The position numbers and the translations under genes are program-made. Source: Nanobdellota archaeon (GTDB taxonomy: Archaea; Nanobdellota; Nanobdellia; Pacearchaeales; GW2011-AR1). Taken from it: a stretch of DNA of 64,000 nucleotides. The stretch is taken from contig DAHWUG010000001.1 in assembly GCA_027334715.1 (NCBI GenBank), forward strand, positions 211,322-275,321. The letters are read 5' to 3'. The notes under the pieces were generated by a model that was given only the letters and a program-made list of their open reading frames with translations, ran no database searches and was not told the DNA's origin. How positions within the stretch are numbered: the stretch's first letter is position 1; each line of letters starts with the position of its first letter. This document shows, in pieces, positions 115 to 45,926 of this stretch.

Positions 115-1254
115 ATGGGAACAAATAGGGGAATCAGCAAGGCTAAATCAGTTGTTTGCATATACTGCCATTCAAAAAAAGTAGTAAAGAACGGCCAGAG
201 AAAAGCAAAATTCCAGACAATCCAAAAATACCTGTGCAAGGAATGCAACAGGCACTTTCTTGACACTGAAAAAAGAGTGCCAAACAAAACTTATCCAACG
301 CAGACAATCCTTAGGGCAATTTCTTTTTACAACCTGGGATACAGCCAGCAAAAGGTTTCAAACATTATCTCAAAAAGATACAAAATCAAAGTTCCCCAAA
401 GGACAATAAGTCAGTGGCTCAGCGAATACAGAAATATCTGCACTTTTTATAAGATAAGAAAAGAAGCAACTAATTTTTATTCACCCGATGAAATAATAGA
501 GGATCATGTTCTCATGCATAACAATCTTCCATACAAGTTCCAGATTCATAAGGCAAAATTGCAGATTCTCTGCCAAAGCAAGGTTTACAACAATAAATTC
601 ACAGACAATTCAAAATTTTATCAGCCATTAAAATCTTATTTCGAAAGAATTCCCACAAAAGATTTTCCCAATCATATCTTTAGCCAGCATCATGACCGTG
701 GCCCAAACCAAACTCAAGAAAATAAATCAGATAAAACAAGCAAAGCAGGCGAAATAGGCAGATTAAGCCGCTCTTCTCAGTTAAAATTCAAGACACTTGA
801 CTTTGTAAAGCAGGAGAAATATAATCAGGCAAACAAACTTGCCTATCTGGCTTTAAACTTAGCAAGGAACAATAGGGAAAGGCACCAGTCAATCCAGGAT
901 TTCATGTTAATCAATGATTCAACAACAATCGCAACAGAAATCCCTGTTTATCTTACTAAAGATGACATAGCTTACTTCAAAGACAAGGGGTTTATTTTTA
1001 ATTTTGAAAGCTATCAAACCCCTATTACAGGGCACATTGATTTCCTGCAAGTAAGGAACGGAATAATCCACATTCTTGATTACAAACCTGGCGCAAACAA
1101 AGTAAATGCAGTCAACCAGCTGACAATCTATGCCTTGGCTTTGGCATCGCGGACAAAGCTTGCTGTAAAGGATTTCAAATGCGCATGGTTCGATGAAAAC
1201 AATTGCTATGAATTCTTCCCTTTGCATGTTGTGTACAAGTTAAGGGAAAAATAA
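115..1254 (+). CDS. N-terminal C4 zinc ribbon (CxxC...CxxC) plus HTH, with a C-terminal PD-(D/E)xK-like motif (GHIDF...ILDYK); transposase/nuclease-like
   Basis: CIYCHSKK..CKECNRHF zinc ribbon as in IS1/IS1595-type N-termini; HTH-like segment; C-terminal D...D-Y-K motif. Confidence 0.35.
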   Translation: MGTNRGISKAKSVVCIYCHSKKVVKNGQRKAKFQTIQKYLCKECNRHFLDTEKRVPNKTYPTQTILRAISFYNLGYSQQKVSNIISKRYKIKVPQRTISQWLSEYRNICTFYKIRKEATNFYSPDEIIEDHVLMHNNLPYKFQIHKAKLQILCQSKVYNNKFTDNSKFYQPLKSYFERIPTKDFPNHIFSQHHDRGPNQTQENKSDKTSKAGEIGRLSRSSQLKFKTLDFVKQEKYNQANKLAYLALNLARNNRERHQSIQDFMLINDSTTIATEIPVYLTKDDIAYFKDKGFIFNFESYQTPITGHIDFLQVRNGIIHILDYKPGANKVNAVNQLTIYALALASRTKLAVKDFKCAWFDENNCYEFFPLHVVYKLREK

Positions 1255-9170: not shown

Positions 9171-9872
9171 TCAGCTAAATTGCTTTATAATATTTTCTTT
9201 TAATTTCTCAAATGCTTTTAGAATTGTTTCTGCCCGCGGCTTTTCTAAAGCAGGGACATAATTGATGCATTTCCTGAAAGCATCAACTTGAGAATTTATG
9301 GCATCTGCCTCCAATGCATTCTCCTCTTTAAGTGTCCTTGAATACCAATTATTCACAATCCCCTTCTGTGTAAACTGCCATGAATGCCTTGCTTCATGAA
9401 CTATTGCCCCCATGTACCAAAAAATTCTTGCTGATGTCAAATTTCCAGGAAGATAATTGGTGAGATTAGATGAGGCTGCCATCATTGTAGAGCCGAAAGA
9501 TATATCTGCTCCTGCATAAGAGCCATTTGTCGCATAAATGCCAGTTATGTATTTATTGACGTCTGAGAAACTTGATGAATCACATCTGCTAAGCATCTCT
9601 AAGGCGGATTCAATATTACTGTCAAATTCAGGAGAACCTAAAATTTCTATTTTCGGTGCTATGCTTATGAACTCTCCTGTTTCATTGTACCTTGTGTCAT
9701 AAACGGTTATTTTGTCTGTGATATGGTTCTGCGATAATAAATTATCATGACTCATTATAAAAACCAGGGCAATAATCGCGAGAAAGATATAAGCGCACAA
9801 TAATGAAACAGCCCAATAATGCTCAAAATCTGAATAAGAAACCGATTTTTTTCCGTGCATTCTCTTTTTCAT
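9171..9872 (-). CDS. membrane-anchored protein with an HExxH motif (putative metallopeptidase)
   Basis: N-terminal TM helix; AIVHEARHSWQ. Confidence 0.3.
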   Translation of the reverse strand: MKKRMHGKKSVSYSDFEHYWAVSLLCAYIFLAIIALVFIMSHDNLLSQNHITDKITVYDTRYNETGEFISIAPKIEILGSPEFDSNIESALEMLSRCDSSSFSDVNKYITGIYATNGSYAGADISFGSTMMAASSNLTNYLPGNLTSARIFWYMGAIVHEARHSWQFTQKGIVNNWYSRTLKEENALEADAINSQVDAFRKCINYVPALEKPRAETILKAFEKLKENIIKQFS

Positions 9873-9964
9873 TTTAATTGTTGGTTTTTTTTATTTATAA
9901 CCTTTTTTGCTTAATTTTTAAGAATCATGATTAACTTTATTAATGATTTCTGATTAAAAAGAAC

Positions 9965-11020
9965 ATGAATAGAGAGGAAAAAGGGGGAAGCAAGGCAAAA
10001 ATAAAATTATTTATTGCACCAAAATTCTTAATACTTATATTTTTATCCTTTATTATAATAACCTTTTTTTTGTCCTCAATCAAGGCAGATGTTATTTCAA
10101 TCAATGCAGGTGGGGACAACAACACCGCAGTAACACCAAGCAACTACATTGAGAATTTTTTCACTTCAATACCAATAATTGCGGCGCCTTCAGGAGGAGG
10201 CGGAGGAACAGGTGGCGGAGGAACAGGCGGTGGTGGAGGAACAGGAGGGGGAGGAGGGGTATCCCCATCTATGAATATATCTTTAAGCTCTACCGAATTC
10301 AACATAAATCTTGCAGTAAATACGACAACTGAAAGAATAATAACCATAACAAACATAGGAACAAATTCTGTTACGCTCACTCCCACAACAACCATTGCAG
10401 ACCATTTAATATTTGAATCATCAAACCTGACTATTGCTCCTGGCCAGTCTGCAACACTTAAAGTTATTTTTCTTGCCCTGAGCACGCCCGGAATTTACAC
10501 AGGAACAATAACAATAGGAGGCCATGATATTCTTGTCTCAATTAACGTAAAAACAAGCTTCTTGCTCTTTGATTCTAACATTGTTGTCTTAAATCCAAAT
10601 TATCAGGTTCAGCAAGGCGATCAGCTATTAACGCAGGTTACATTGATTCCACTAGGCAGCCAGGAAAACACGGATGTTAACTTAATTTTCACGATAAAGG
10701 ACTACAACAATAAAGTATTCATCACAAAATCAGAAACAATGATGATTAACAAACTTACAAGGATAAACAGAAACTTTGACACAGGAACATTGCCTCCAGG
10801 CAATTATGTAATTGGATTGCAGCTTGTCTATGGCACTTCTTTAGCTCCCTCAAGCGCGCATTTTGAAATAACAAAGAAGACAACAACAATACTCGGCACA
10901 ATAATACTCTATCTGATATTTTTGATATTGTTAATTATAGTACTTATCTTGATAATATTAATCATCAGAAGAATCAGGAAGATGAGGGAAGAGGAAGCTG
11001 CACAAGCACGGGCAGCATAG
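9965..11020 (+). CDS. Gly-rich surface protein with a C-terminal TM anchor
   Basis: signal/TM at the N-terminus, GGGGGTGGGG tract, C-terminal ILGTIILYLIFLILLIIVLILIILIIRR. Confidence 0.45.
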   Translation: MNREEKGGSKAKIKLFIAPKFLILIFLSFIIITFFLSSIKADVISINAGGDNNTAVTPSNYIENFFTSIPIIAAPSGGGGGTGGGGTGGGGGTGGGGGVSPSMNISLSSTEFNINLAVNTTTERIITITNIGTNSVTLTPTTTIADHLIFESSNLTIAPGQSATLKVIFLALSTPGIYTGTITIGGHDILVSINVKTSFLLFDSNIVVLNPNYQVQQGDQLLTQVTLIPLGSQENTDVNLIFTIKDYNNKVFITKSETMMINKLTRINRNFDTGTLPPGNYVIGLQLVYGTSLAPSSAHFEITKKTTTILGTIILYLIFLILLIIVLILIILIIRRIRKMREEEAAQARAA

Positions 11021-13845: not shown

Positions 13846-14355
13846 ATGAAACTAAGGCATATTTTAAAAAAAGGTCGCGAGGTTACAACAAGAGAAGGCA
13901 GTTTTGTAATTAAACTAGCGAGCAAAATTGTTTCTGAGATAAAGTCATACTGCAGAAAAATTGAAATCGGAGGGAGCATAAGAAGAAAGTCGAAAAATCC
14001 TACAGATATTGACCTTATTGTTATCCCAAAAACAGAAGAGAATAAAGATAAAATAAAATTTGCCCTTGAAAAAAAAGGAAAATTCTTGCAGGGTGGAGAA
14101 CAAAGAGCATTCTTTAAGATTGAAGGCGTTGAAGTTGAGATCTATTACACAACGCCTGAAGAATGGGGGGCTGCGTTTCTTGCCTATTCAAGTCCATTTG
14201 GCGCCAGCATTGGCTTAAGGATTGTTGCAAGGACAAAAGGATTCAAATTAAACCAGCATGGGCTTTTCAGGCACGGGTTGCAGGTTGCAGGAAGAACAGA
14301 AGAGGAAATTTATCGTGCTTTAGGAAGGCCATGGAAGCCGCCTGAAAAAAGGTGA
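13846..14355 (+). CDS. Pol-beta-like (family X) minimal nucleotidyltransferase domain protein
   Basis: GGSIRRKSKNPTDIDLIVI palm motif; C-terminal GFKLNQHGLF...EEEIYRALGRPWKPPEKR thumb-like. Confidence 0.5.
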   Translation: MKLRHILKKGREVTTREGSFVIKLASKIVSEIKSYCRKIEIGGSIRRKSKNPTDIDLIVIPKTEENKDKIKFALEKKGKFLQGGEQRAFFKIEGVEVEIYYTTPEEWGAAFLAYSSPFGASIGLRIVARTKGFKLNQHGLFRHGLQVAGRTEEEIYRALGRPWKPPEKR

Positions 14356-14571: not shown

Positions 14572-15054
14572 ATGAGATACGAACCAGCTCCAGATATACA
14601 GAGAATAGCAGATGAAATATCCAAGCTGCTTTTTCCCCACGTTCATATAGACAGAATGAGATGCTTTCGCAGTTATGGAAGCTCTTCGCGGGGAACAATT
14701 GCAAGATGCCACACCATTGGAAAGCTTTTGCAGAGAGCAATGAATGTTGACGCTTTTTATGCACTTGAGTTCATATCGGAAAGGTTTGACAAGATGCATG
14801 AAGAGGAGAAGATAAAGACGATAATCCATGAATTAATGCATATTCCGCAGACTTTTGGCGGGGGATTCAGAAATCACGACCATGTCTGCGAAAGAAATGT
14901 CAATATGTGCTACAAAGAGTACAATGAAAAAAAGAAGCAGGCTGAAGAAGCAGACTTTTTAAAAATCAAGGAATTAAAATGGAAAAACGAGGATAATGTC
15001 AAAAAGCTTAAAGACATAAGAAAAAATGCAGGCAAAGGTTGGTTTTCATTATAA
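14572..15054 (+). CDS. HExxH zinc-metallopeptidase-like protein
   Basis: IIHELMHIPQTFGGGFRNHDH. Confidence 0.3.
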   Translation: MRYEPAPDIQRIADEISKLLFPHVHIDRMRCFRSYGSSSRGTIARCHTIGKLLQRAMNVDAFYALEFISERFDKMHEEEKIKTIIHELMHIPQTFGGGFRNHDHVCERNVNMCYKEYNEKKKQAEEADFLKIKELKWKNEDNVKKLKDIRKNAGKGWFSL

Positions 15055-15382
15055 AAAAAAGAGGCTTTCTTTTAATGCAAGGAAATGCGGAATGTTTGGC
15101 CAATTTTGGGGTCTGATGTTTTCCCGTAGGGAAAAAGCTGAAAATCTCCTTTTTGAATTTAGGAAGCCGGTAAGTTTCAGCATTCACTCTGTGTTTGTTT
15201 TCTTCCCTTTTGTTGCTGTCTGGCTTGATGAAAAAGGCAATGTTACCAAAATAAAGATTATAAAACCATTTACTCTGTCTGTCAAACCAAAAAGAAAATA
15301 CAAAAAGCTGCTGGAAATACCAATAAACAGGAAGAACAGGAAAAAATTGCAGTCTCTTTCCCGTAACTTTCCTCAATATTAA
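15026..15382 (+). CDS. DUF192-family protein
   Basis: GFHYKKK...GLMFSRREK...VWLDEKGNVTKI pattern. Confidence 0.4.
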   Translation: MQAKVGFHYKKKRLSFNARKCGMFGQFWGLMFSRREKAENLLFEFRKPVSFSIHSVFVFFPFVAVWLDEKGNVTKIKIIKPFTLSVKPKRKYKKLLEIPINRKNRKKLQSLSRNFPQY

Positions 15383-15463
15383 CTAACAAACTTCTTTCGT
15401 AAAGTTCCTCTGCTCGTAACTTTCCTCAATATTAACTAACAAACTTCTTTCGTAAAGTTCCTC
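15361..15463. repeat. tandem direct repeat, 2 x ~50 nt (ccgtaactttcctcaatattaactaacaaacttctttcgtaaagttcctc)
   Basis: two near-identical units separated by tgct; unit 1 includes the stop codon of the upstream ORF. Confidence 0.75.
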
Positions 15464-21600: not shown

Positions 21601-21865
21601 GTATGTTTATACCGATGAAGAACTTAAGAAAGAGGTCAGCAATGTTGATTCAAACAATGTCACAAGATTCAAAGGACTTGGAGAAATGAGCTCTACCCAG
21701 CTATGGGATACGACAATGAATCCAAAAACGAGAAAAATAAAAAAGATTTTCATAGAAGATGCTGTCGAGGCAGACAGCGTTTTCACAATGCTTATGGGAG
21801 ATGACGTGCAGGCAAGAAAGCTTTTCATCCAGGAAAATGCAAAAGAAGCTAATCTTGACATATAA
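18680..21865 (+). CDS. gyrB: DNA gyrase subunit B, containing an intein
   Basis: GyrB ATPase and TOPRIM motifs (LHHLVYEVVDNSVDEA; IVEGESAGG / SAKMARNKEIQAILPLKGKILNVEK) interrupted by a ~431-aa insertion. Confidence 0.9.
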   Translation: MEEKKERNEYTASEIKVLEGLEGVRKRPAMYIGSTGKDGLHHLVYEVVDNSVDEALAGYCKKIKVTINKDGSVTVDDDGRGIPVDMHPILKIPAVEVALTKLHAGGKFDKKAYVISGGLHGVGVSVVNALSKKLIVEVKRDGRVYTQEYSKGITKTKLKEGAKAEGTGTTVTFWPDEEIFSTVVFDYKVLENRFREITFLNPGLKILLEDEKSGKKEEFYSSGGLIEFVKWLNKSKEALHKPIYFKKEVDHSVIEAAIQYNSSYQENIFGFVNTINTIEGGTHVSGFKTALTRVINDYAKSKELLKGESLQGDDVREGLTVIISLKMQEPQFEGQTKTKLGNSEMKGFVDSATTQALSEFFEENPGIARIITAKALDSAKARLAAKKAKDLVRRKNAFSLGGLPGKLADCSSRKTEDTEIYIVEGESAGGCFSMNTEVALADGRDLSFKELVEEHQQGKTNFCYTINKNGSIGIEKIENPRITKSNAEVIKVILDNNQEIICTLDHKFMLRDGTYKEAKLLTRNDSLMPLNKKISKVGGRITIEGYEMVWDPKRKWIFTHMLADEYNLRNYIYTNKQNEVRHHIDFNKRNNNPRNITRLNKEQHLLLHTEHLDRTLHRQDVKEKARQAHRNPEYRKRVSDWAKQPEIKKMMSERSRKLWENPEYKRNIMEKYIKFYNSNGKYRENLKKRFYQQQKEYWLNLENKKKASEKLKKFFEKNPDTKEYLSNLAKEQWKDEFLLLWRRQKTKEQWTPEFRKKRKDSYNQTYYRKTISLMKSIAEREGSLNNFDNVRIQGRDKSILSLKEFQKRFFNRDKEEMLETVKNYNHKIKRIERLTERIDVYDIEVPNTHNFALASGVFVHNSAKMARNKEIQAILPLKGKILNVEKSSPVRSLSSEEIANLITAIGTGVGENFNVENLRYNKIIIMSDADVDGEHIKTLLLTLFYRFMPQLIESSHIYVALPPLYRVRKGQKDQYVYTDEELKKEVSNVDSNNVTRFKGLGEMSSTQLWDTTMNPKTRKIKKIFIEDAVEADSVFTMLMGDDVQARKLFIQENAKEANLDI
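19970..21262 (+). mobile_element. GyrB intein (Cys1 ... His-Asn / Ser+1) with an HNH-like region
   Basis: insertion begins CFSMNTEV right after GESAGG and ends FVHN before SAKMAR; internal HHIDFNKRNNNPRNITRLNKEQH resembles HNH. Confidence 0.75.
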
Positions 21866-29832: not shown

Positions 29833-30156
29833 GTTAATTATTAATTTAGAAGGTTTTTAAAGTTTTCAGACGCGGAAAATTACACATTTATCCCTATAAG
29901 AACAAGAATTAAAGCAATGATTAAATCCCAGATTCCAACTTTTTTCATTATTTTGTGGCTTCTTAAAATCTTTTCACCTTCTCTTCTGCTGAAATGCGGA
30001 AATGCAAGGAGCAGAATTCCCTTTAGAAAAACAAAAATCGCCAAAGTCAATAAAACAATGTTCCAATTCATGATTTATTAATGATTATTTAATTTTTAAA
30101 CCTGATGTAAAGTCAAGAACCATAAACGATATAAGATAATCTCTTGTCTGAAAGTA

Positions 30157-31211
30157 ATGGGTCGGGAGATTTTATGGAGTCCGTCCAGGATTGATGCTGC
30201 AAACTACTGCCGTATGAGGTATTATCTAAAATATATAGAGCACAATCAAGGCCTTCAACTGTCTGCATTTCTTAAAGGTGGTCTCTTGCATGAATTGATA
30301 GAAAATTTTTGGAATAGGCTTAATGTCAAATATTCAGATGCCGGGGAATTTGCAAAGTATGCACAAGGGAAATGGCAGCAGCAGTGCATAAGGTCAGAGC
30401 ATTCAGACAGGCCTGTTGTATGGAAATATCCCGAGGAAAGATGGGTTATAAAAAAAGATCTTGAGGGCATATGTGAAACACTATTCCCTATTTTTATGGA
30501 AGAGGGAAAGCCGATATATTCAGAACTTGGATTTACCATAAGAATCGGGGAAAAACATTTACAGGCAGAATAGACGATATAAGAAGAAGACTAGTTGAAG
30601 GAATCAAAAAAATTATAATAAGGGATTACAAATCAGGAAGACCCTCCATAGGCGAGATGAAACTGAATTTTGACCCGCAGCCAACAATTTACAACGCGGC
30701 ATTAAATGGGATGATGTCTGAGAGTGATGAAGTTGCAAGAGCCCTTGGTTTTGATGGAAGGGTAATAAATGCAGATGGTTCATTCATAAACCATGATTTT
30801 GTACAGGAATATTTCATGCTTGAAGCTGAAAATTTTGTCAGGAAAAAGGAAAGTGAAGGCAAGAAAGTGGTAATGCCTTATCTTAGGGAAGCAAGAAGGA
30901 CAGATGAACATTTTTACGAAGTAATCAGAATGATAGAAGGAACAGAAAAAGCTGTTGCTACAGGCAATATTTATGCTGAAAGAGGGAGAAAATGCGATGA
31001 CTGCGACATGAAAAATGCGTGCGCTGCAAAACTTATGAAATCATGGGAAGGACCGTTTTCTGTCAAGGGTCAAATGACTTTTGATTTTGCAATTCCCAGA
31101 TTCGCAAAAACAGAAACAAAATCGCAAAAAGAAAAAACACAGAAAAAAATAATATTCAGAAAGAAAAAGCCAGAAATTGTTGCCCCCAATCCGCTTTTTC
31201 CTTCCTCTTGA
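30157..31211 (+). pseudogene. Cas4/RecB-like PD-(D/E)xK nuclease with a C-terminal Cys cluster, split by a -1 frameshift at the G4A5 run (30547-30555)
   Basis: frame 1 ends ...GEKHLQAE*; the overlapping frame continues FTGRIDDIRRRLVEGIKKIIIRDYKSGRP (motif II/III) then ...CDDCDMKNACAAKL. Confidence 0.6.
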
Positions 31212-31248
31212 TTTTTCTTAACCTTGATTAATGAGAATTATTGGTAAT

Positions 31249-33000
31249 CTACATCCCCCAATCCGCTTTTTCCTTCCTCTTGATTTCCGCGATTTCCTGG
31301 AGGATATTTATCTCTTTTCCCGACAAAAGGTCCTTATTTTTCCTGAAATTTCTGAATTCTGATTCTCCCATGTCTGAATAAATAAAATCTACATCCCTCA
31401 TTCTTCTCTCGAAATTTATTCCAGGAACAGAGACTGCAAGCTCCTCGTCCTCATGAGCTTCTTCAACGCTTCTCTTTTCTTCCTGCATGTTCTTTATCTT
31501 TCCAATTTTCTTGCCTGTTGAATCCATGAAATGAATTCCAGGCACAAGCTTGCCTGCTTCAACCTTTACCCCAAAAATTGCAGGGCTTGTATTCCTGAAA
31601 ACATATTGCTTTAAAACTCTGAGCTTGCACAATTGAGTAAGCCCTAGAAGCCTTGTTTTTTCTATTTCTTTTCTTTTTTCATCCCTGAATTTTACTAAAT
31701 TTTCTATAAGCTTGTAAATAACCTCATCTGTAAGAACCTTGACATTTCCCTGCATTTGCCTTGCTTCATCATCCATTGAAACATTAAAGCCAAGAATTAC
31801 TGCATCAACCTCATTAATTTCCAGATTTGCCTTTGCGTTTAAAATATCACTCTTGCTTATTTTTCCTATACCTGCCTTAAGCACCGGAATATTTGCCTGT
31901 TCCAAAAGAATCATCAATGCTTCTAGGCTTCCAAGGGAATCTGCCTTGACAATTATACCGCTTGAATCTGTTTTTATGTTTTCAGACAATTCTTTCTGGA
32001 ACATTTTTTGAATCTCATTAAGATTGTCCTTGAAGACGACAAACGGCATTCCCGGAAGAATGTCAATGCTTTCTGTTAGCTGCATTCGCAAGCCGGTCGC
32101 AGCTGTGACTTTTTCCTTTGGAGAAAACTTGTCGCTTATAGGAAGAATCTCCTCCAAAACACGGATTTTCACAACAACAGGTTTTGCTTCCAGATTTGCA
32201 ACAGCAATCTTGTCCTTTTTTGAAAGCTCCCCATCGTAAAGTATTGATTCCAGATAATAATTCTCTTTTTCTTTCTTTATTTCCAGGACAACCCCTTTTG
32301 CCTCGCTGCCAAGAGTAATCCTGTTTTCAAGATATTTCTGGCTTAAGCCGCACAGCATAAGTGTTAGTTCTGGAATTCCCTCGCCTGTTCTTGCAGAGCA
32401 AGGAACAAGAGCTATTTTTTTTGTGAAATCAGTTATATTATAGTAAATGTCTGCATCAAAGCCATAGCTGTTCAATGAGCCAATCAAAGTTAGATATTTT
32501 TCGTTGAAGTCCATTGCGGTATTTTTTGCCTGGGACTCAATGCTTTCCCTTAAATTCTCATTATTCCTCTTCCATCCATGAATATTGTCTATTTTATTCA
32601 GTGCGATTACGAAAGGAGTTTTGTTATGCTTCAAAATCTGTATTACCTCTGATGTCTGTGGCTTTATCCCCTCATTTATATCAATGACAAGGACAGCGAG
32701 GTCTGCTAGAGAACCTCCGCGCTTTCTCAAATTAGTGAAAGCTGCATGGCCAGGCGTGTCAATAAGAAGAAATCCCGGAATGTCAAGCTTAATTCCGCTC
32801 TTATCAATCAAAGGGCATGCTTTTTTCAGATTTTCAGCAGGATATAATGTGAAAGAAATCTTTTGCGTTATCCCCCCTGCTTCGCCTGTTGCAACACTGC
32901 TTTTTCTCAGCCTGTCCAGTATGCTTGTCTTACCATGATCAACATGACCGCAGACCGTGACAATCGGCTGACGGATACGGTTATTGGCTATGGTTCTCAT
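31249..33000 (-). CDS. infB: translation initiation factor aIF5B (IF2)
   Basis: QPIVTVCGHVDHGKTSILDRLRKSSVATGEAGGITQ; probable start at the internal Met (MRTIANN). Confidence 0.85.
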   Translation of the reverse strand: MRTIANNRIRQPIVTVCGHVDHGKTSILDRLRKSSVATGEAGGITQKISFTLYPAENLKKACPLIDKSGIKLDIPGFLLIDTPGHAAFTNLRKRGGSLADLAVLVIDINEGIKPQTSEVIQILKHNKTPFVIALNKIDNIHGWKRNNENLRESIESQAKNTAMDFNEKYLTLIGSLNSYGFDADIYYNITDFTKKIALVPCSARTGEGIPELTLMLCGLSQKYLENRITLGSEAKGVVLEIKKEKENYYLESILYDGELSKKDKIAVANLEAKPVVVKIRVLEEILPISDKFSPKEKVTAATGLRMQLTESIDILPGMPFVVFKDNLNEIQKMFQKELSENIKTDSSGIIVKADSLGSLEALMILLEQANIPVLKAGIGKISKSDILNAKANLEINEVDAVILGFNVSMDDEARQMQGNVKVLTDEVIYKLIENLVKFRDEKRKEIEKTRLLGLTQLCKLRVLKQYVFRNTSPAIFGVKVEAGKLVPGIHFMDSTGKKIGKIKNMQEEKRSVEEAHEDEELAVSVPGINFERRMRDVDFIYSDMGESEFRNFRKNKDLLSGKEINILQEIAEIKRKEKADWGM

Positions 33001-33348
33001 AAATAAAATGGGTGTGAAAACAACTTTAAAAACGCTATGGAAAAGAGGAGTTAAAAAATAATGGTAAGCAAAAATAAGCCTGTTTTTGAATGCAATCAAA
33101 ACGAAATTAAGTGGAATTTAATAAATAACTTGCTTGCTGGATTATTGGTTTTCTTCGATGCTTTTACTGGTGCTGGTTTTCACTTTACTTTAGAAAGCGT
33201 TATAATTGCTGGTGCAACATCATTAATCGTCGCTCTTTCTAAATTTAAAGATTATTGGGCGACGCAAGAAAACGAATACAAAACAAAAAAATGCTGTTTA
33301 ATTTTGTTGGTTAATTAGGTTTATAACTAAAGATTTTATATTACTTGT

Positions 33349-33978
33349 ATGAGTGATAAAATAACTGTTAAAGAATTTAATACTTGGCAGAGATTAATGA
33401 AAAGAGGAGATAGTTTTTTAGACATTGGTTGCTGGGATGGAAGTTTAGTTAGTAAATTATTGAAGAAAGGAGTTGACGCATTTGGAATAGATATTGATAA
33501 AGATAAATTAGCTTTGGCGGATTTTAAAATAAAAGATAGATTAAAATTGGCGGACGCAACTAAAACTATCCCATTTAAACAAAAATTTGATTTTATTTTG
33601 CTCTCAGAAGTTTTAGAGCATGTTAATTCCGAGGAAGAATTGATTAAAAATGTTTCTAAATGTCTAAAAAAACAAGGTTATTTAATATTGACAACTCCTC
33701 GAAGCGTAAGAGGATTTCAAATATGGGACCCTGCTTGGGTTAGATGGAAGTTTGGGGGAGCATTCCATCATCATTATACCTTAGAACAACTTCAAAAACT
33801 TTTATCGAAGCAAAACATAATTATAGAAAAGTATGCTATAGGCGGTTCTCTCTCTTGGGTAATTTCAAGATGGTGGAGTGTATTAATAAGGTATGGATTA
33901 AAAATAAACACAAAATTAACTCATTTTTCAGAACGAGATGGATTTTGCGACTTTAAATTGATTGCTCGTAAAAAATAA
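33349..33978 (+). CDS. class I SAM-dependent methyltransferase
   Basis: FLDIGCWDGSLVSKLLKKGVDAFGIDID. Confidence 0.6.
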   Translation: MSDKITVKEFNTWQRLMKRGDSFLDIGCWDGSLVSKLLKKGVDAFGIDIDKDKLALADFKIKDRLKLADATKTIPFKQKFDFILLSEVLEHVNSEEELIKNVSKCLKKQGYLILTTPRSVRGFQIWDPAWVRWKFGGAFHHHYTLEQLQKLLSKQNIIIEKYAIGGSLSWVISRWWSVLIRYGLKINTKLTHFSERDGFCDFKLIARKK

Positions 33979-34142
33979 TCAATAATTAACAGTTCATCGC
34001 TTGCCCCATGGGCTCAAAAATTTCTTTATTCAAATGGAGATATTTTTTTTTGCTTCCATTTTGTATTTTGCCCTTTATTTTCCATTTATGATATACTTAT
34101 CAGTGCAGAATTATTTTTAAAGCTTGAGATGCATATTTTTAT

Positions 34143-34430: not shown

Positions 34431-34685
34431 TTAATTTTAAAAACCGAGATTTCTTTTACTAAACATGGCATTTTGGTATTATACTCCTGGAATTTTTGTA
34501 GGAATAATTGGAATATTAATGATGGTTTTCAGCTCGTATGACAATAAAAATCTTATGACCTGGGGCTTACACTGCTTATTATTTCCCTTGTTGCAGAAGC
34601 TGTTATCTGGCTTGCTACTGTAATCTAGAATTTAGAATCAGTAATTTTTTATAGTACTTATAAATATCTTCCTTAAACAAATAGC

Positions 34686-35054
34686 ATGGGAAAATCACTA
34701 TCTCCTAAAAAATTTGAATTTGTTTCTGTAGCAGAAGCAGACAGAGAAAATCTTTTACCTCCTGTTTTAATAGAACCTGAGCTTGAAAAAATAGCCCTCA
34801 GAGAAGATGTAGAAAAAGTTTTGTCTCAGCTCAGCTCAAAAGAGTCTGCAATCGTTGTAAGATATTATGGCTTAAGGGGTTATAACCCTATAATATTAAA
34901 GGAAATTGCTAAGGAATTGCACACGTCTGTTTTTAGGGTGCAATATTTTTATCATAAAGCAATGGAAAGACTGAGGGGAAGACATGATTACTATTCAAAT
35001 AGAACAGGACTTGCAGAAAGATTAGAGCCTTATTTAGAAATTTTTTTTCAATAA
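34686..35054 (+). CDS. sigma-70 region 4-like HTH protein
   Basis: LSSKESAIVVRYYGLRGYNPIILKEIAKELHTSVFRVQYFYHKAMERLR. Confidence 0.45.
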   Translation: MGKSLSPKKFEFVSVAEADRENLLPPVLIEPELEKIALREDVEKVLSQLSSKESAIVVRYYGLRGYNPIILKEIAKELHTSVFRVQYFYHKAMERLRGRHDYYSNRTGLAERLEPYLEIFFQ

Positions 35055-35061
35055 ATGAGAA

Positions 35062-35364
35062 TTAGTAATCCTGTATTTCTTCTTCGCTAGGCTCATCTGA
35101 CAAGGTTTTCTGCCCTGCAGGCATTTTGCCTTCTTCTTTTGCAGGCTCTGCCTTTAGGTCTTCCTCAGAAATGGAATCTATCATTTCCTTGAACTTTGGG
35201 AAATCTGCAGCGCCAATCTTAACTCCTGATTTTGTGAAGCCGGTGTATCTTTCAGATGTTACAAATTCCCTTATTGTCACTCCAGGACGGCCTCCAAAGT
35301 CATCGAGCCTTATGATTATGTCTGTCGTGTCGTTCTTTTTTATCTTTCCCAGGTCTTTTTCCAT
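35062..35364 (-). CDS. PC4-like transcriptional coactivator / ssDNA-binding protein
   Basis: IIIRLDDFGGRPGVTIREFVTSERYTGFTKSGVKI parallels the PC4 core. Confidence 0.45.
   Translation of the reverse strand: MEKDLGKIKKNDTTDIIIRLDDFGGRPGVTIREFVTSERYTGFTKSGVKIGAADFPKFKEMIDSISEEDLKAEPAKEEGKMPAGQKTLSDEPSEEEIQDY
35238..35280. repeat. 43-bp direct repeat, copy 1 (inside the PC4-like CDS)
   Basis: agccggtgtatctttcagatgttacaaattcccttattgtcac, identical to 36469-36511. Confidence 0.9.
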
Positions 35365-35469
35365 GATTTAGGATTGTTTTCCTGTTTATATAAAGTTTTT
35401 GATGCTTGTGTTTTGGTGCTGTAGTATAATGCTGAAAAAAGAACTATCAACAAAAGCAAATAAGCCAAA

Positions 35470-36345
35470 CTATAAACCAATTTTCATTAAAATTACACCA
35501 ACTATCATAATAACACTACCTATTATTGTTTCAGTCTTAGGTTTATCTTTGAAGAAAATAAAACTAAATAACAAAACAAATAATATTTGAGTTTTGAAAA
35601 TTGTTGAAACAACTCCAATGCTTCCGCCGCCTGTAGCAGAAAAGGCTAAAATTGTTGAAATAGCATTAAGAACCCCTAAAATAATAAATAGTTTTTTGTT
35701 ATCAAATATTTGTTTTGTAAAGTTTTCGTTTCTTAGATAGAGAATTGGCAATAGTCCGATTATAATCAGAATATTCTCAGCCAGAAGAACAAAAGTAGTA
35801 TTCTGAGGAATAGTGTTATTGATTGCGAGCTTGTCAAATGCTATTACGACGCTGCCAGCTAAAACAGATAATATCATTAGTTTTGACGCTTTATTTTTAA
35901 AAAGCAGTTTTATAGGTTTAAGTAAACCTTCTTTAGCACTACTAACATTTAAAGTATACACTCCAAACAATGTTATAAAAATACCAATTATTGCGAGAAA
36001 CCCTGGCTTCTCATTGAGGGGCGGAAGAAAAGCAACCAATAATGTAAATATTGAACCGAGAGATATAAGTGGATAAATTGCTGATAAATCGGCAATTTTC
36101 ATTGCTTTGAACTGAACAATCTGTGAAACAGTGTAAAAGAGAACGGAACCAACAATTCCAGTAATAAATAATAGGTTTAAACTCGGAATGCCTTCTTTGA
36201 TAGCAATCACTACAATAATTGGCGTTGCTAAAACTAATGTGCACCAGGTTAAAACTAAGGGGCTAACACCCTTTAGTATTCTTTTGTTTAAGATTACAGA
36301 AATAGCAAATATTACAGCTGTTATAATTGCTATATAAAACCACAT
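35470..36345 (-). CDS. EamA/DMT-family transporter
   Basis: ~10 TM helices in two repeated halves. Confidence 0.55.
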   Translation of the reverse strand: MWFYIAIITAVIFAISVILNKRILKGVSPLVLTWCTLVLATPIIVVIAIKEGIPSLNLLFITGIVGSVLFYTVSQIVQFKAMKIADLSAIYPLISLGSIFTLLVAFLPPLNEKPGFLAIIGIFITLFGVYTLNVSSAKEGLLKPIKLLFKNKASKLMILSVLAGSVVIAFDKLAINNTIPQNTTFVLLAENILIIIGLLPILYLRNENFTKQIFDNKKLFIILGVLNAISTILAFSATGGGSIGVVSTIFKTQILFVLLFSFIFFKDKPKTETIIGSVIMIVGVILMKIGL

Positions 36346-36468
36346 ATTTATTTAAAATCATTGAATGTATATAAATATATTTTCCTCTCTTATTTCTTGT
36401 AAAGTTGAATGTTGTACAGACTAACTCGAATATTGTGCAGAATTCTCAAGATTATTTATATTGTGCAA

Positions 36469-36511
36469 AGCCGGTGTATCTTTCAGATGTTACAAATTCC
36501 CTTATTGTCAC
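36469..36511. repeat. 43-bp direct repeat, copy 2
   Basis: exact copy of 35238-35280. Confidence 0.9.
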
Positions 36512-36736
36512 GCCCGAAGATGAAGAATTTATAAATAAATTTCCTGTGGATAATTAATGAATAACACAATTAAACTGCTTTATTCATTGCTCATTGGATT
36601 TGTTGCAGTAGTGATAGCGAAATTTGTCCATCCAGTCTGGAGTTTAATTCACCTGCTTATATTTGGCTTAGTAGTATTCGCTGTAACATTCATATTGACT
36701 TTATTAATAAAAAGGAAAAGAGCGAAAAAATAAGCT

Positions 36737-37057
36737 TTATCTTCTCTTGTTCTGGTTGCTTATGTGAAATACATGTTCAATCTGATGCTCTATCTTGCTG
36801 AAAACCTTGTGAAAGACGGCGTTTAGCTCAAAATCGCTTGCTTCTGCCTCCATTGTCTTTCCTGCATAACTTACCTGAGCATGAAGGCTATATTTTGTCC
36901 TTCCTCCCTTGCTGTGCTCTTTTAGTTTTATCCTGAAAGACTCAGCATCTTTTAGCATTCTGTCTATTTTTTTGGAATTTTCCTCAAATATTTTTTGAAA
37001 CTCGCTTTTAGTACTGTCTGTAAGAATTTCAAATCCTACTGTCTGGAGTTCAACCAT
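36737..37057 (-). CDS. ribosome hibernation factor (HPF/RaiA)-like protein
   Basis: size and pattern (MVELQTVGFEI...; C-terminal FELNAVFHKVFSKIEHQI resembling Y.AID.A.DKLERQL). Confidence 0.35.
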   Translation of the reverse strand: MVELQTVGFEILTDSTKSEFQKIFEENSKKIDRMLKDAESFRIKLKEHSKGGRTKYSLHAQVSYAGKTMEAEASDFELNAVFHKVFSKIEHQIEHVFHISNQNKRR

Positions 37058-37101: not shown

Positions 37102-37142
37102 AAACGAAATCGCCACAACCAAAACCCTATAAAAAGTAATAC
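37102..37142. repeat. 41-bp direct repeat, copy 1
   Basis: aaacgaaatcgccacaaccaaaaccctataaaaagtaatac; one mismatch to 37937-37977. Confidence 0.85.
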
Positions 37143-37160: not shown

Positions 37161-37877
37161 CTAAGAATCATCGATTAACCCCTTAAAAATTCTCATCATA
37201 TCTCTGACTTTTATTGAATTGATTTTTCTTTCTGTGTTTCCATCTTTAAAATAACTACCAATTATTGCCGCATTACAAATTTTCATCTGATTAACAAAAT
37301 TTCTGGGATTTACGCCTGCTCCAACAACCAATGGAAAATTTCCCATAACTCTCCTAAAATCCATTAATTTTTTTGTTGGTGTCTCAATTCCAGTTCCTTC
37401 TCCTGTTGTTACGATTGCTTCACATCTTGACATTCCTTCCGCTATATCTTCTTCTAAAGCCCTTCCTGTTGGCTTAATATATTTAAATCTTACTCCCCCG
37501 AGAATAAAAATATTTTGGTATGCTATCCTATAATTATTAAAATAATCTGGAGTAATATCAGGGGAGTTAATAGTATCAAATTGCACAAACTTTGCTTCGT
37601 ACTTGTTAGCAAGAGTAAGTCCAAGATAAGGATCTCTCAGAACATTAACTCCCAATACTAAATTAGTCCCCCTCTCTTTAATTGCTTCTAAAGTTCTCTC
37701 AACGTCTTCTTCACTTCCATGATAATCTTCAACAATTACTCCGTGAATACCTTGTTGTTCAAAAATGTCAATTTCATCCAACGCTCTTTTAACTCTTTCT
37801 TTCTTATTTTCTCCTGCTAGATGGAGCATTCCAATAACTGATTTCTTAGGAAACAATTGAAAAAAATCCAATGTCAT
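37161..37877 (-). CDS. BtpA/SgcQ-family TIM-barrel protein
   Basis: SVIGMLHLAGENKKE...GIHGVIVEDYHGS. Confidence 0.55.
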   Translation of the reverse strand: MTLDFFQLFPKKSVIGMLHLAGENKKERVKRALDEIDIFEQQGIHGVIVEDYHGSEEDVERTLEAIKERGTNLVLGVNVLRDPYLGLTLANKYEAKFVQFDTINSPDITPDYFNNYRIAYQNIFILGGVRFKYIKPTGRALEEDIAEGMSRCEAIVTTGEGTGIETPTKKLMDFRRVMGNFPLVVGAGVNPRNFVNQMKICNAAIIGSYFKDGNTERKINSIKVRDMMRIFKGLIDDS

Positions 37878-37936: not shown

Positions 37937-37977
37937 AAACGAAATCGCCACAACTAAAACCCTATAAAAAGTAATAC
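37937..37977. repeat. 41-bp direct repeat, copy 2, immediately 3' of tRNA-Ser
   Basis: aaacgaaatcgccacaactaaaaccctataaaaagtaatac. Confidence 0.85.
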
Positions 37978-37978: not shown

Positions 37979-38059
37979 CGCCCGTGCCAGGAATTGAACC
38001 TGGAAGCCAGTTAAGGCCTCGCTTTCCAAGCGAGTGGAGTACCATTGTCCCACACGGGC
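37979..38059 (-). tRNA. tRNA-Ser (anticodon GGA) with a long variable arm
   Basis: acceptor GCCCGTG/CACGGGC, anticodon stem CTCGC/GCGAG with loop TTGGAAA, T-arm CCAGGTTCAATTCCTGG, 14-nt variable arm. Confidence 0.8.
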
Positions 38060-39566: not shown

Positions 39567-40919
39567 TTATTTTATGATAATATCATGCTCCCCCCTTTTT
39601 ATATCAAATCTGCTTGGTTCTGAATCAACATGAAGGGGTATTCCGAGATTTTGTGTTATTTTTTCTCCAATATAATGCGCAACCCTCTGGAGTGTAGGAT
39701 GCACTAACCTTGAATCCCTTAACTCAACCATATAAACTACTGCCGGCAGATCTCCTGTGAATCTGTTCGCAGTGTTGTATCCCATAGGCAAGAAGTATTG
39801 CTCTTCTTCAGGAGAAATTCCCAACTTCAAAGTTTCATCCAATATTTTTCCCAGATGTTCTGGTAATTTTTCTCTTATGCTTTCTGGAAGATTATCAACA
39901 TACCACTGGTTAAATCCTAAATCAGATGTCAAAAGAGGCATTCTCTGAACTATTGCTCTGTGCCTTTGAATATCCCGGAATGAGCCGAAATCCAATGAGA
40001 ATTTTGCATCAATAGTTCCAAGTTGGCTTAAAAATTTTGGAAGCTCTGTTTTTTCAGGCCGTTTCTTAAATAATTCCGAATATTTTCCTAACTCTAAAAT
40101 ATCCAGATTATCAAAATTCACAAAGGGAAGAAGAGGGGAATCATGGTCGTGATAATAATAATTTTTTGCTATTAAATCCTGATATGCTTCTGTTTCTGCA
40201 TATCTTTTATGGCTGAATGAGCTTGGATATTTCTGGGTTAATGCTTCCTCAAGACCTCTTGTTATTTCCCTAACTTCTGCAAGAGGATGATGCCTTAAGA
40301 AGAGTATCCTGTCTGCAGCCTGCCTTAGATTAACATGCCATGCAATGTTTGTTGCAGCGCCTGCAGGAAGAAGACTTCTTGTTATATCAAAAGCCCTTGC
40401 ATTTATAGCTTTTTGATAAACAGAATCTTTTTCTCCTTCTTTTTGTGGATAAATATCTGTTAAATGCTTCTTTGTAGGCTCCTGAGCAGAAATATAAAAA
40501 TCTCTTTGTGACTCAAGTATCTTATCTCCTAAATTTCTGCCTGTAAAGTTAAGAAAAGGCTGCTCTGAAAAAGGGATAAACCTTGTTGATGCTTCCTGTC
40601 CTGAATAAAGCTGAGTATCCTGCATTGCTTTTGCAGCAAGCATTGAAATCCCTTCCACGAAGACTGTTGTTGTGCCGCAATCGCCTATTGACTTATGGCC
40701 ATATCCAACATAAAAATTCTGCATAAAATTCTCAGCGCCTTTTTCCGCAAGGATTTTTAGGTGGCTTCTTAACCCGCCGGTTGACCTTGAATGCAGGGCC
40801 TGTAGCATTGCCTCTGCTTCGGCATCTATAACTGCACCTGTGTCAAGTACCATCACTTCACCGCCCGTGCTTAATTTAACATGCGCATGTTTCAACTCAG
40901 AAATCCTATTATCACCCAT
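39567..40919 (-). CDS. thyX: ThyX-like flavin-dependent thymidylate synthase (large form)
   Basis: GYGHKSIGDCG...; FRDIQRHRAIVQRMP (RHR motif). Confidence 0.45.
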   Translation of the reverse strand: MGDNRISELKHAHVKLSTGGEVMVLDTGAVIDAEAEAMLQALHSRSTGGLRSHLKILAEKGAENFMQNFYVGYGHKSIGDCGTTTVFVEGISMLAAKAMQDTQLYSGQEASTRFIPFSEQPFLNFTGRNLGDKILESQRDFYISAQEPTKKHLTDIYPQKEGEKDSVYQKAINARAFDITRSLLPAGAATNIAWHVNLRQAADRILFLRHHPLAEVREITRGLEEALTQKYPSSFSHKRYAETEAYQDLIAKNYYYHDHDSPLLPFVNFDNLDILELGKYSELFKKRPEKTELPKFLSQLGTIDAKFSLDFGSFRDIQRHRAIVQRMPLLTSDLGFNQWYVDNLPESIREKLPEHLGKILDETLKLGISPEEEQYFLPMGYNTANRFTGDLPAVVYMVELRDSRLVHPTLQRVAHYIGEKITQNLGIPLHVDSEPSRFDIKRGEHDIIIK

Positions 40920-45386: not shown

Positions 45387-45926
45387 ATGATGCTTGTAAA
45401 AACTTCTGCAATAACTGATGAAACAAGGGAGCACATGAATACTGTTCTTGAGGAAGTATTTGCGCATAAAGAAGGGGAGGGTATACAATCAGTTGTTTCT
45501 GAAGTACTTAATGACAAAGATGTTTTCTTATACTTACTAACTTATCTTAAAACAAATCAAGTTGTTTCTGAAGTACTTAATGACAAAGATGTTTTCTTAT
45601 ACTTACTAACTTATCTTAAAACAAATCAAGGAGTTGAGTTAGGAAGAATGTCTTATTGGGATGATATTAGGGTGGAAGTTCCTTACGGGATAGCAGTTGA
45701 TCAAAGGTCTTATCATCCTAAACTGACTATATTTGAGTATAGTTCTGTAATGGGAAGTGCTGACGAATTAGGATTTTATCCATTTTTACCAAGACGCCAT
45801 GGAACTTTTGCTTATGAAGATTTTCCTACTCCAAAGAATTTTTCTGATGCAGTAAATTTGGTTTTAAAAAATCCAAAAGGAAGTTTAGTTGATTTAAACA
45901 GAATAAAAAAAGGAATTACTTACTAA
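45387..45926 (+). CDS. hypothetical protein with an internal in-frame 69-nt tandem duplication
   Basis: VVSEVLNDKDVFLYLLTYLKTNQ encoded twice (45491-45559 and 45560-45628). Confidence 0.3.
   Translation: MMLVKTSAITDETREHMNTVLEEVFAHKEGEGIQSVVSEVLNDKDVFLYLLTYLKTNQVVSEVLNDKDVFLYLLTYLKTNQGVELGRMSYWDDIRVEVPYGIAVDQRSYHPKLTIFEYSSVMGSADELGFYPFLPRRHGTFAYEDFPTPKNFSDAVNLVLKNPKGSLVDLNRIKKGITY

Follow-up and report, generated by a model that had tools for sequence, protein, structure and literature searches.

In a 64-kb stretch of the genome of a DPANN (Pacearchaeota-type) archaeon, hereafter called the window, a short sequence is present twice on the same strand: once inside a conserved gene for a PC4-like protein and once in non-coding DNA beyond a gene for an EamA/DMT transporter. 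How did a piece of one gene come to stand on the other side of another? The first-pass annotation described an exact 43-bp direct repeat that could not be due to chance, bracketing a transporter gene, and took it to suggest an insertion. We analyzed the repeat itself, the boundaries of the inserted DNA, and the other insertions of the neighborhood. The coordinates of all features are given in Table 1.

The repeat and its two copies

The 43-mer had only two exact occurrences, 35238–35280 and 36469–36511, on the same strand and with no mismatches; no 43-mer match was obtained in 100 dinucleotide-preserving shuffles, and none is expected by chance. The full exact identity comprises 44 bp with a spacing of 1231, and with its fuzzy edges the repeat extends to ~55–57 bp at 93% identity with one 2-nt gap. 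The repeat pair is real. Two k141 assemblies, L001 and L105, were 100% identical to the window over 8,328 and 7,344 bp, respectively, and a Logan contig assembled with k = 31 (L106), which covers 36497..35251, ended 30 nt (k−1) into each repeat copy; these observations rule out an assembly artefact. These three contigs and the window represent a single population. The 44-mer had no exact match in JGI metagenome contigs, and protein look-ups for strain variants yielded identical contigs only, with no intermediate haplotype seen.

Table 1. Features of the repeat locus and of the neighboring insertions (positions refer to the window; a dot marks features given without strand).
Feature	Position	Strand	Remarks
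Exact copy of the aIF5B CDS end, 32 bp (31255–31286)	31183..31214	.	Inside a 1,133-bp insertion
Native PC4 3' end and spacer (ATTACTAATTCTCATTT)	35053..35069	.	Imperfect repeat (14/17) at 34629–34645
PC4-fold ssDNA-binding-type gene, 100 aa, intact	35062..35364	-	Supported by homologs; 84% nt identity to L002 over promoter and CDS
Native 44-bp copy, codons 29–43 (VTIREFVTSERYTGF)	35237..35280	-	Strand beta3 and start of beta4
Lineage-specific insertion, 1,328 bp, from HPF-like stop codon to PC4 promoter	35409..36736	.	Replaces 8 bp of the L002 spacer
Conserved EamA unit: 36-bp promoter (TATA 36368–36375), CDS, and 7 bp	35463..36381	-	76–83% nt identity to cassettes elsewhere
EamA/DMT transporter gene, 291 aa	35470..36345	-	PF00892, E = 2.9e-21, two stretches
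10-bp ATATTGTGCA abutting the orphan copy	36458..36467	+	Repeats 36430–36439; resembles native flank ATTTTGTGA
Orphan (ectopic) 44-bp copy, non-coding	36468..36511	-	Divergent promoter region between EamA and micro58
micro58 promoter	36512..36556	+	TATA TTTATAAATA at 36528–36537; cassette end abuts the orphan copy
micro58, 58-aa two-TM small protein gene	36557..36733	+	39 homologs, 66–86% identity
HPF-like (Ribosomal_S30AE) gene, conserved left neighbor	36737..37057	-	PF02482, E = 6e-5
41-bp direct repeat, copy a	37102..37142	.	Adjoins HPF promoter; family D11, 98% identity (1 mismatch)
BtpA cassette, 794 bp, closely flanked by 41-bp copies a and b	37143–37936		Gene 37161..37877
41-bp direct repeat, copy b	37937..37977	.	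Begins 2 nt after the tRNA-Ser(GGA) 3' end
tRNA-Ser(GGA)	37979..38059	-	

The first copy lies within the PC4-like coding sequence, as had been proposed; it is an internal, 5'-proximal segment, and not the 3' end of the gene, the duplication of which had been considered in the first-pass annotation. The gene is highly conserved, with 3,114 homologs across DPANN, and the homologs cover 100% of the protein length; family comparison showed that residues T30–K45 are mostly invariant and V29 and V35 near-invariant. The AlphaFold2 model had pLDDT values above 90 for residues 1–70, with strands at 3–11, 14–22, 27–36, and 41–51 and a helix at 52–63. Its best PDB match in Foldseek was the PC4 homolog 5a4n_A (E = 3e-4, TMt 0.84), and the top matches (5a4n, 4bg7, MoSub1) were all PC4 homologs. 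The Pfam PC4 profile (PF02229) scored below the threshold, yet matched 25 of 25 family members, while a sequence search of the PDB with the PC4 family profile gave no meaningful match and a fold search was needed. The predicted structure thus assigns the product to the PC4/Sub1 fold family. The copy inside this gene is the native one, and the gene is vertically inherited.

The second, orphan copy is confined to the repeated core. The PC4-family HMM aligned with the core only (hmm 26–45), and blastn homology between the copies stopped at 55–57 bp; a decayed PC4 pseudogene and a larger segmental or tandem duplication are thereby ruled out. Tblastn matches of the antisense ORF seem longer, but the extra part amounts to ~4 identities over 21 residues. 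The orphan copy was identical to the resident PC4-like gene alone: the closest relative had 7 differences in the 44 positions, the nearest other species in this segment had 3, and every other species differed at 3 or more. A PC4 fragment brought by a donor is thus ruled out, and the orphan copy derives from the PC4-like gene of the lineage itself. Its flanks partly resemble the native ones: ATATTGTGCA stands against ATTTTGTG-A on one side and GCC against TCC on the other, matching at 6/9 and 2/3 positions, respectively. The 10-bp sequence abutting the copy represents a microhomology or slippage footprint.

The insertion and the captured genes

The limits of the inserted DNA were determined by blastn against locus L002, where 37065–36737 corresponds to 9620–9948 and 35408–35053 to 9957–10309. 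In the closest relative (93% amino acid identity of PC4; loci L002–L009 and L020), the PC4-like gene directly follows the HPF-like gene across a spacer of ~50 bp, and the segment occurs only once. Several further species included, this empty site was found in L002–L009, L010–L012, L020–L023, L043, and L062. The transporter gene is absent from the spacer of these relatives, and none of the genes for EamA, BtpA, Sigma70_r4, or micro58 was found within 6 kb of PC4 in 80 species. The insertion of the EamA gene, suspected from the repeat, is therefore lineage-specific.

The repeats do not delimit this insertion. One copy lies 128 bp into conserved native DNA, whereas the other belongs to the insert itself and is 225 bp away from the HPF-proximal end. 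The DNA between them consists of the EamA gene, the promoter of the PC4-like gene, and its first 28 codons; the 58-aa micro-ORF, which had been placed within the bracket, is outside it. Since the ends of the insertion do not coincide with the repeats, there was no simple target-site duplication. Of the long target duplication suggested earlier, the plain flanking form fails for this reason, and only a modified form, with ~172 bp duplicated, is compatible with the arrangement.

Two unrelated minimal cassettes of promoter plus gene, micro58 and EamA, form the mosaic of the insert; they are divergently oriented, with the 44-bp fragment exactly between them. The Pfam match confirmed the identity of the transporter gene (Table 1); it had 153 homologs, many of them labelled CPR/Patescibacteria, and the limits of homology of the EamA unit were the same in seven loci. 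The conservation of micro58 among its homologs indicates that it is a real gene. Elsewhere, micro58 occurs in unrelated contexts, with another upstream partner or none, and in other contigs the EamA unit and micro58 are separate and were never linked. The AATTTATAAATAAA motif of the micro58 promoter also precedes an operon in L103. We considered a remnant of a partner gene upstream of micro58 and rejected it: alignments were no better than those of shuffles, and an operon-type promoter stands directly before micro58.

Other insertions and duplications in the window

Four of the approximately eight insertions specific to the window in comparison with L002 carry a duplicated piece of adjacent native sequence, the duplicated lengths being 44 bp (exact), 41 bp (one mismatch), 32 bp (exact), and 17 bp (14/17). 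The 41-bp pair flanks the BtpA cassette. It does not overlap the tRNA-Ser gene and starts beyond it; a remnant of the tRNA 3' end within the repeat was rejected because the resemblance (GGTTGTGGCG versus GGTTGGGGCG in L002) extends over 10 nt only and is too short. Relatives of BtpA were so few and so distant that no mobile unit larger than promoter and CDS could be defined. The 17-bp pair flanks a 407-bp Sigma70_r4 cassette (gene 34686..35054; Pfam), and a single L002 sequence, 10293–10309, aligns to both sites.

The fourth case is the 1,133-bp insertion at 30115–31247, which begins directly after the aIF5B stop codon. Here a split PD-(D/E)XK nuclease pseudogene is truncated at its 3' end, where the 32-bp copy of the aIF5B end is located. 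Homology of the pseudogene ends exactly at the copy, at residue ~172 of 184; no microhomology flanks this copy. A comparable arrangement was present in another species (L052), in which an exact 31-bp duplication of the PC4 3' end flanks a 150-bp insert.

Other short exact duplications of the window, a 69-bp in-frame tandem and a 49/53-bp tandem, have no connection with insertions. In total, the 64-kb window had five short exact duplications and related loci totaling 816 kb about a dozen, an enrichment that is based on small numbers. A 43-bp repeat in L034 was discarded as an artefact flanking a scaffold gap of Ns, and the 11-mer TAATTCTCATT, common to the DNA after the aIF5B and PC4 stop codons, is not significant alone. 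An ORF for a PolX thumb domain (13846..14355) was the sole hint of end-joining or polymerase activity in the window.

Origin of the repeat

We consider the repeat to be the scar of a recombinase-independent capture of foreign DNA between the HPF-like and PC4-like genes that generated duplications, and we assign this explanation a probability of about 55%. A free 3' end of the captured DNA would prime at a microhomology on nearby PC4 sequence, of the broken chromosome or of a sister copy, copy a stretch of it, and then be joined on. Two versions agree with the observations. In the first, EamA would enter at a break inside PC4 with duplication of ~172 bp (spacer, promoter, and codons 1–43), which would keep PC4 intact, and the micro58 cassette would later overwrite the left copy except for 44 bp. 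In the second, one complex event would join micro58, a 44-nt templated 'filler', and EamA. In favor of the explanation, the source of the copy lies in the recipient's own genome, 128–171 bp from the insertion boundary. The copy is placed between cassettes of separate origin and has fuzzy, microhomologous edges; the cassettes may have arrived in one event or in several. The same process would account for the duplicated native DNA at the three neighboring insertions (BtpA, Sigma70_r4, and aIF5B).

The two 44-bp copies show zero divergence. Recombination between them would delete EamA together with the promoter and N-terminus of PC4, so the arrangement is probably of recent origin, with selection acting against the deletion. 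Survivorship may explain part of the association with insertions, because in a compact genome neutral copies are tolerated only where the DNA is inserted or intergenic.

Templated fillers copied from the flank of a break occur at junctions of captured foreign DNA in other systems, as in T-DNA capture (PMC10923293). These likewise are short flank-derived copies of variable length, with junction microhomology and small local repeats and with neither a recombinase nor a fixed target; however, the process described is eukaryotic and Pol theta-dependent (PMC10923293), whereas the host here is a DPANN archaeon. Furthermore, whole cassettes of promoter plus gene were captured at the present locus, and the 44-bp copy is between two captured fragments and not at the chromosome–insert junction, where a classical filler would sit. 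Pol theta is not known as an archaeal enzyme, and the copies of 32–44 bp seem to be longer than the fillers known for synthesis-dependent microhomology-mediated end joining.

The most serious competitor, although an improbable one, is a later patch of the kind described as SPDIR, in which a single-stranded PC4 fragment anneals during replication at microhomologies between EamA and micro58 and replaces a short stretch. The cassettes would already have been in place, with insertions and duplication being unrelated events. SPDIR is a described mechanism, producing intragenomic patches of 3 to ~100 bp at microhomologies with possible mismatches and gaps (10.1101/2023.11.22.568220). The orphan copy is such an ectopic patch in size, position, and (extended) microhomology bounds, and its anatomy of a 44-bp exact core within a gapped 57-bp alignment corresponds to it; the tandem duplications of the window that are unrelated to insertions also speak for this reading. 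Against it, SPDIR was extremely rare in the one organism in which it was measured (10.1101/2023.11.22.568220), and an archaeal case was not found in the literature examined. SPDIR is independent of gene insertion and does not produce repeats on both sides of an insert, and so the 41-bp and 17-bp repeats precisely flanking the BtpA and Sigma70_r4 cassettes are left unaccounted for, as is the position of both internal copies (44 and 32 bp) exactly at the ends of captured fragments. The 32-bp copy lacks the microhomology that SPDIR uses.

A Campbell-type rescue is less probable still. The micro58 insertion would have cost PC4 its promoter and N-terminus, leaving HPF, micro58, and PC4 from codon 29 onward, and a conspecific circular or sister-chromosome fragment with EamA and an intact PC4 5' half would have recombined at the shared segment (A), restoring PC4 and leaving an A–B–A structure. 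This scheme gives exactly the observed order (micro58, A, EamA, promoter and N-terminus, A, C-terminus), a conspecific donor would agree with the exact identity of the copies, and restoration of PC4 would be strongly selected because the gene is so conserved across DPANN. However, it needs at least three independent events and a viable intermediate without a probably important gene, the required donor haplotype (HPF, EamA, PC4) was not seen, and the neighboring events are unaccounted for.

The att cores of archaeal integrases typically form direct repeats of 40–50 bp, those of SSV-type elements being 44 bp. Integrase-borne islands in tRNA or protein genes (SSV- and pNOB8-type archaeal elements, tRNA-linked islands) combine an exact repeat of ~40–50 bp, having one copy in a gene, with acquired DNA and a tRNA nearby. 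The present locus resembles such islands, with the tRNA-Ser gene 1.5 kb away, and relatives of EamA occur in mobile cassettes of other contigs. An attL/attR pair of a site-specific integrative element, or a target-site duplication of an EamA-carrying transposon, is nevertheless very improbable and largely refuted. The repeats are off the insertion boundaries and bracket native promoter and coding sequence, each neighboring event duplicates its own sequence at its own length, and a second copy of the PC4 segment was present in 0 of 80 other species, so the target is not reused among them. Pfam searches of the window ORFs tested revealed no integrase or transposase domain and no tyrosine or serine recombinase gene in or beside the bracket, and we failed to find terminal inverted repeats at the insert ends or an integron-type attC-like palindrome or integrase at the EamA locus. 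The site-specific or replicative insertion proposed in the first-pass annotation was accordingly not upheld. Some IS elements (IS1634, IS1549) do make long variable direct repeats of the target, 8–514 bp, around inserted DNA (PMC2266710), but they have a DDE transposase and defined ends; here neither a transposase nor inverted ends were found, and the repeats of the EamA case are not at the insert boundaries. The CPR-like EamA cassettes (L015–L019) share the gene and its 36-bp promoter (Table 1) as single-gene modules of ~1.2–1.3 kb bounded by direct repeats; they carry a common imperfect-palindrome motif of ~34 nt and direct repeats of ~110 bp in several contexts, whereas the window lacks those flanks and the boundary motif.

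That the orphan copy is a functional element, transcribed from quasi-symmetric flanking TATA boxes into an RNA perfectly complementary (or identical) to PC4 mRNA over 44 nt and coupling PC4 expression to the acquired genes, is suggested by its position between two promoters, with the micro58 TATA at a distance of 16 bp and that of EamA at ~93 bp, and by a 50-aa ORF (36405..36557, plus strand) that reads through it and overlaps the micro58 start (TAATG), but can hardly be maintained: the ORF had no homologs except the antisense of PC4 genes, the upstream partner of micro58 differs or is absent in other genomes, the element is conserved in no other genome, and the sole Rfam match was the tRNA, with none at the orphan copy. 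We read the orphan copy as a young, functionless fragment of the lineage's own PC4-like gene; on its own, the 44-bp repeat is a neutral scar with no evident function. Most probably the 44-bp piece arose through imprecise DNA joining and does not mark a mobile element.

The genomes of DPANN archaea are tiny and contain few recognizable mobile elements, and there is no cultured genetics; gene gain in these organisms is therefore known only from sequence footprints. The locus provides a dated series of single-gene gains beside conserved translation genes, each marked by duplicated neighboring native sequence, including an EamA gene with close relatives in CPR bacteria. A broader proposal, which we put forward tentatively and consider unlikely as yet, is that DPANN archaea, and perhaps their CPR neighbors, acquire single promoter-to-stop cassettes, including cross-domain ones, by a recombinase-independent pathway that duplicates 17 to ~170 bp of the target, with a hot spot between tRNA-Ser and aIF5B. 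If this is true, at least four captures are stacked in that interval, and simple recombination between the flanking repeats could undo each gain. Should the pattern be found throughout the genome, a specific error-prone joining pathway would be indicated as a route of horizontal transfer in DPANN, and recent acquisitions could be recognized by a simple sequence signature.

The repeat and its genes

The first-pass annotation had reported a perfect direct repeat of 43 bp, and this was borne out: its only two copies, at 35238-35280 and 36469-36511, lie on the same strand without mismatches, and none of 100 dinucleotide-preserving shuffles contained such a pair, in line with its view that chance is not the explanation. 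An exact-repeat scan extended the identity to 44 bp (spacing 1231), and with gaps allowed the alignment lengthened to 55–57 bp (93% identity), its edges being fuzzy. Two more k141 assemblies, taken from other ENA analyses, matched the window at 100% identity (8,328 bp of L001 and 7,344 bp of L105), and a k=31 Logan contig spanned 36497 to 35251, ending 30 nt (k-1) inside each repeat copy. De Bruijn assemblers stop k-1 nt into a true repeat; the structure is therefore real, all assemblies showing it representing one population. The repeat is recent, and the gene insertion is real.

The annotation's account of the bracketed DNA had to be corrected: the gene of the 58-aa two-TM protein (micro58) lies outside, and the copies enclose the EamA gene and, from the PC4-like gene, the promoter with codons 1–28. 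The repeated piece is not the 3' end of that gene; it covers codons 29–43 (VTIREFVTSERYTGF), where conservation across the family is highest.

Homologs of the 100-aa PC4-like protein (3,114, spanning its full length) are labelled Pacearchaeota or Nanoarchaeota, and the host of the window is a DPANN archaeon. The label "PC4-like" is justified: Pfam PC4 matched 25/25 tested family members, all below threshold, and the best PDB matches of the AlphaFold2 model (four strands and a helix, pLDDT >90 for residues 1–70) were PC4 homologs, namely 5a4n_A (E=3e-4, TMt 0.84), the T5 PC4 homolog and MoSub1. EamA is, as annotated, a normal two-domain DMT transporter; micro58, with 39 homologs at 66–86% identity, is a genuine conserved two-TM protein.

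Positions of the repeat copies, insert parts and other features of the window
Feature	Position	Description
Repeat copy in PC4-like gene	35237-35280	44 bp, exact
Orphan (non-coding) copy	36468-36511	44 bp, exact
micro58 gene	36557..36733 (+)	58 aa
Window-specific DNA	35409-36736	1,328 bp
Insert part 1 (PC4 direction)		HPF stop codon and 3 bp
Insert part 2	36528-36537 (TATA box)	micro58, reversed, with own TATA box
Insert part 3		44-bp orphan copy
Insert part 4		87 bp, no assigned origin
Insert part 5	36381-35463	EamA unit: 36-bp promoter, CDS and 7 bp beyond
Insert part 6		54 bp with T-run
Insert part 7		native PC4 promoter
Insertion 1, EamA/micro58		44-bp exact copy
Insertion 2, BtpA cassette, 794 bp	37102-37142 / 37937-37977	41-bp repeat, one mismatch, closely flanking
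Insertion 3, Sigma70_r4 cassette, 407 bp	35053-35069 / 34629-34645	17-bp repeat (14/17) of PC4 stop region
Insertion 4, 1,133 bp directly after aIF5B stop codon	31255-31286 -> 31183-31214	exact copy of last 32 bp of aIF5B CDS, 34 bp in
ORFs in aIF5B-side insertion	30157-31211	138 aa (PDDEXK_1 N-terminal half) and 184 aa, consecutive
Methyltransferase insertion	32977-34077	methyltransferase (209 aa) and 85-aa ORF
GyrB	18680-21865	1,061 aa owing to intein (PF14890, residues 439-861)
ThyX	39567-40919	450 aa
79-nt repeats	2037-2115, 3276-3354, 4429-4507	~1.2 kb apart; 92% and 73% identity to first
Zn-ribbon and PD-(D/E)XK ORF	115..1254	before 79-nt repeat array
In-frame tandem duplication	45491-45628	exact, 69 bp (23 aa, VVSEVLNDKDVFLYLLTYLKTNQ twice), within 179-aa ORF 45387..45926
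Duplication at end of ORF 15026..15382	15362-15463	exact 49 bp, 4-nt spacer; 53-bp tandem unit, last 4 nt differing
Family X polymerase ORF	13846-14355	169 aa, thumb domain only

Make-up of the insert and origin of the orphan copy

The empty site that the annotation proposed to look for exists in relatives: L002–L009 and L020 have the HPF-like gene (106 aa), 52 bp and then the PC4-like gene, an adjacency also found in L010–L012, L021–L023, L043 and L062. The genes of EamA, BtpA, Sigma70_r4 and micro58 were found within 6 kb of PC4 in none of 80 GTDB species. By blastn, the window-specific DNA replaces 8 bp of the relative's spacer.

The EamA unit recurs at 76–83% nt identity in other contigs with wholly different flanks; elsewhere micro58 either stands alone or comes second in a small operon, never beside EamA. 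The insert is therefore composed, as a mosaic, of two minimal cassettes with separate origins, and the orphan fragment lies precisely between the two. Against L013–L019 (bacterial, CPR, by gene order), the EamA promoter and CDS (35463-36381) show 76–83% nt and 82–85% aa identity, and several EamA homologs are labelled Patescibacteria; this suggests that the gene crossed between the domains fairly recently, along with a promoter that both can use.

One EamA homolog, P0126, occurs as an identical protein in at least three contexts of CPR-like contigs (L015:118-3710, L016:3938-5360, L018:364-2027), in a module of ~1.2–1.3 kb bounded by direct repeats of ~110 bp and an imperfect palindrome of ~34 nt (AACTTCGNATAT...ACGTTATACGAAAT). 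L015 has the palindrome motif at 118, 1704, 2373 and 3670, between three single-gene cassettes upstream of an EF-G/EF-Tu/S10 operon, and so has the look of an uncharacterised cassette array whose boundary site is lox/dif-like. The 79-nt repeats of the window divide two-gene nucleotidyltransferase (MNT-like) modules and form another cassette-like array, with a ParE/YoeB-like toxin gene ahead of it.

The PC4-like gene, including promoter and N-terminus, is 84% identical in nucleotides to that of the closest relative, L002 (93% aa), similar to neighbouring genes; the copy inside it is native. The orphan copy matches the resident gene at 44/44 positions and has 7 differences from the closest relative and 3 from the nearest of ~100 other loci, so that it was taken, recently, from this lineage's own gene. 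No homology past its core was found by blastn, and the family HMM aligned to its translation only at profile positions 26–45; the larger segmental duplication named in the annotation as the contrary case is thus not seen.

Neighbouring insertions with copied native sequence

Compared with L002, the window has ~8 specific insertions across ~30 kb of synteny, four of which carry duplicated adjacent native sequence. The second BtpA repeat copy begins 2 nt past tRNA-Ser(GGA), and L002 10293-10309 aligns to both 17-bp sites at the Sigma70_r4 cassette. The 32-bp aIF5B copy lies at the end of the captured fragment, since homology of a split PD-(D/E)XK nuclease pseudogene stops exactly there (residue ~172/184). 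The 184-aa ORF of this insertion matches the C-terminal half of ~350-aa homologs, and both ORFs are probably one split, dead Cas4/RecB-like nuclease gene. In another species (L052, 6281-6492), an insert of 150 bp is flanked by an exact 31-bp duplication of the PC4 3' end, whose last nine codons (SNSEEMPDY*) serve a new 59-aa ORF as its C-terminus. Divergence within repeat pairs (Sigma70_r4 3/17, BtpA 1/41, EamA 0/44, aIF5B 0/32) suggests that the Sigma70_r4 event would have come first and those of EamA and aIF5B last.

The GyrB intein is among the ~8 insertions and is absent in L002 (1,321-bp difference); L010 has an intein with a LAGLIDADG domain in GyrA, not GyrB. ThyX is 312 aa in L010, the window protein having ~140 aa extra. 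The methyltransferase insertion, at which no flanking duplication was seen, lies between the old aIF5B promoter and start codon; aIF5B has gained another promoter, and its N-terminus (MRTIANNRIRQP) differs from that in L002 (MKTRIRQP).

Proposed capture at a break and its alternatives

Foreign DNA can be captured at breaks by microhomology-primed, synthesis-dependent joining, which leaves "fillers" templated by the sequence beside the break and can duplicate target sequence (PMC10923293); it is the best-fitting known analogy for the window repeats. Because the repeats at these insertions vary in sequence and length, each copying whatever adjoins the break, they argue for duplications made independently of a fixed target or recombinase. 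We give capture at a break, in either of two versions, a probability of about 0.55. In the first, PC4 would have broken after codon 43 and been repaired with EamA attached, and ~172 bp (spacer, promoter, codons 1–43) copied again from a sister chromosome; only that product leaves PC4 intact. The micro58 cassette would later have overwritten the left copy except for 44 bp. In the second, one complex event would have used the 44 nt as a filler joining two captured fragments. The 10-bp ATATTGTGCA, which adjoins the orphan copy and recurs 28 bp away, and the fuzzy alignment edges are the kind of local footprint left by such joining. The family X (Pol beta-like) thumb-domain ORF is possibly a fragment and at most a hint on gap-filling enzymes.

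The main rival, a later and independent short-patch copy of SPDIR type, is considerably less probable: the 44-bp copy fits its definition, but it would leave the repeats around the BtpA and Sigma70_r4 cassettes unexplained. A Campbell-type rescue of a truncated PC4 gene is doubtful, as it yields the observed gene order but requires unseen haplotypes; in the collections searched there was neither a closer relative nor a variant haplotype of this species. An integrase or transposon origin is very improbable, and the site-specific, replicative or long-target-duplication insertion suggested in the annotation is not supported in that form, because the insertion ends lie away from the repeats and neither terminal inverted repeats nor, in the locus and the other window ORFs scanned, integrase or transposase domains were found; moreover, native sequence lies within the bracketed DNA, and no recurrent use of the 44-mer as a target is seen in the other species and loci compared. 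A regulatory antisense role of the orphan copy is equally improbable.

The repeat is best read as the scar that an illegitimate capture of DNA left behind, not as a mobile-element signature. This capture footprint is of an already known kind, of which the locus is a new example; its interest is raised by the stacking of similar events beside it and because the captured transporter has relatives in another domain.
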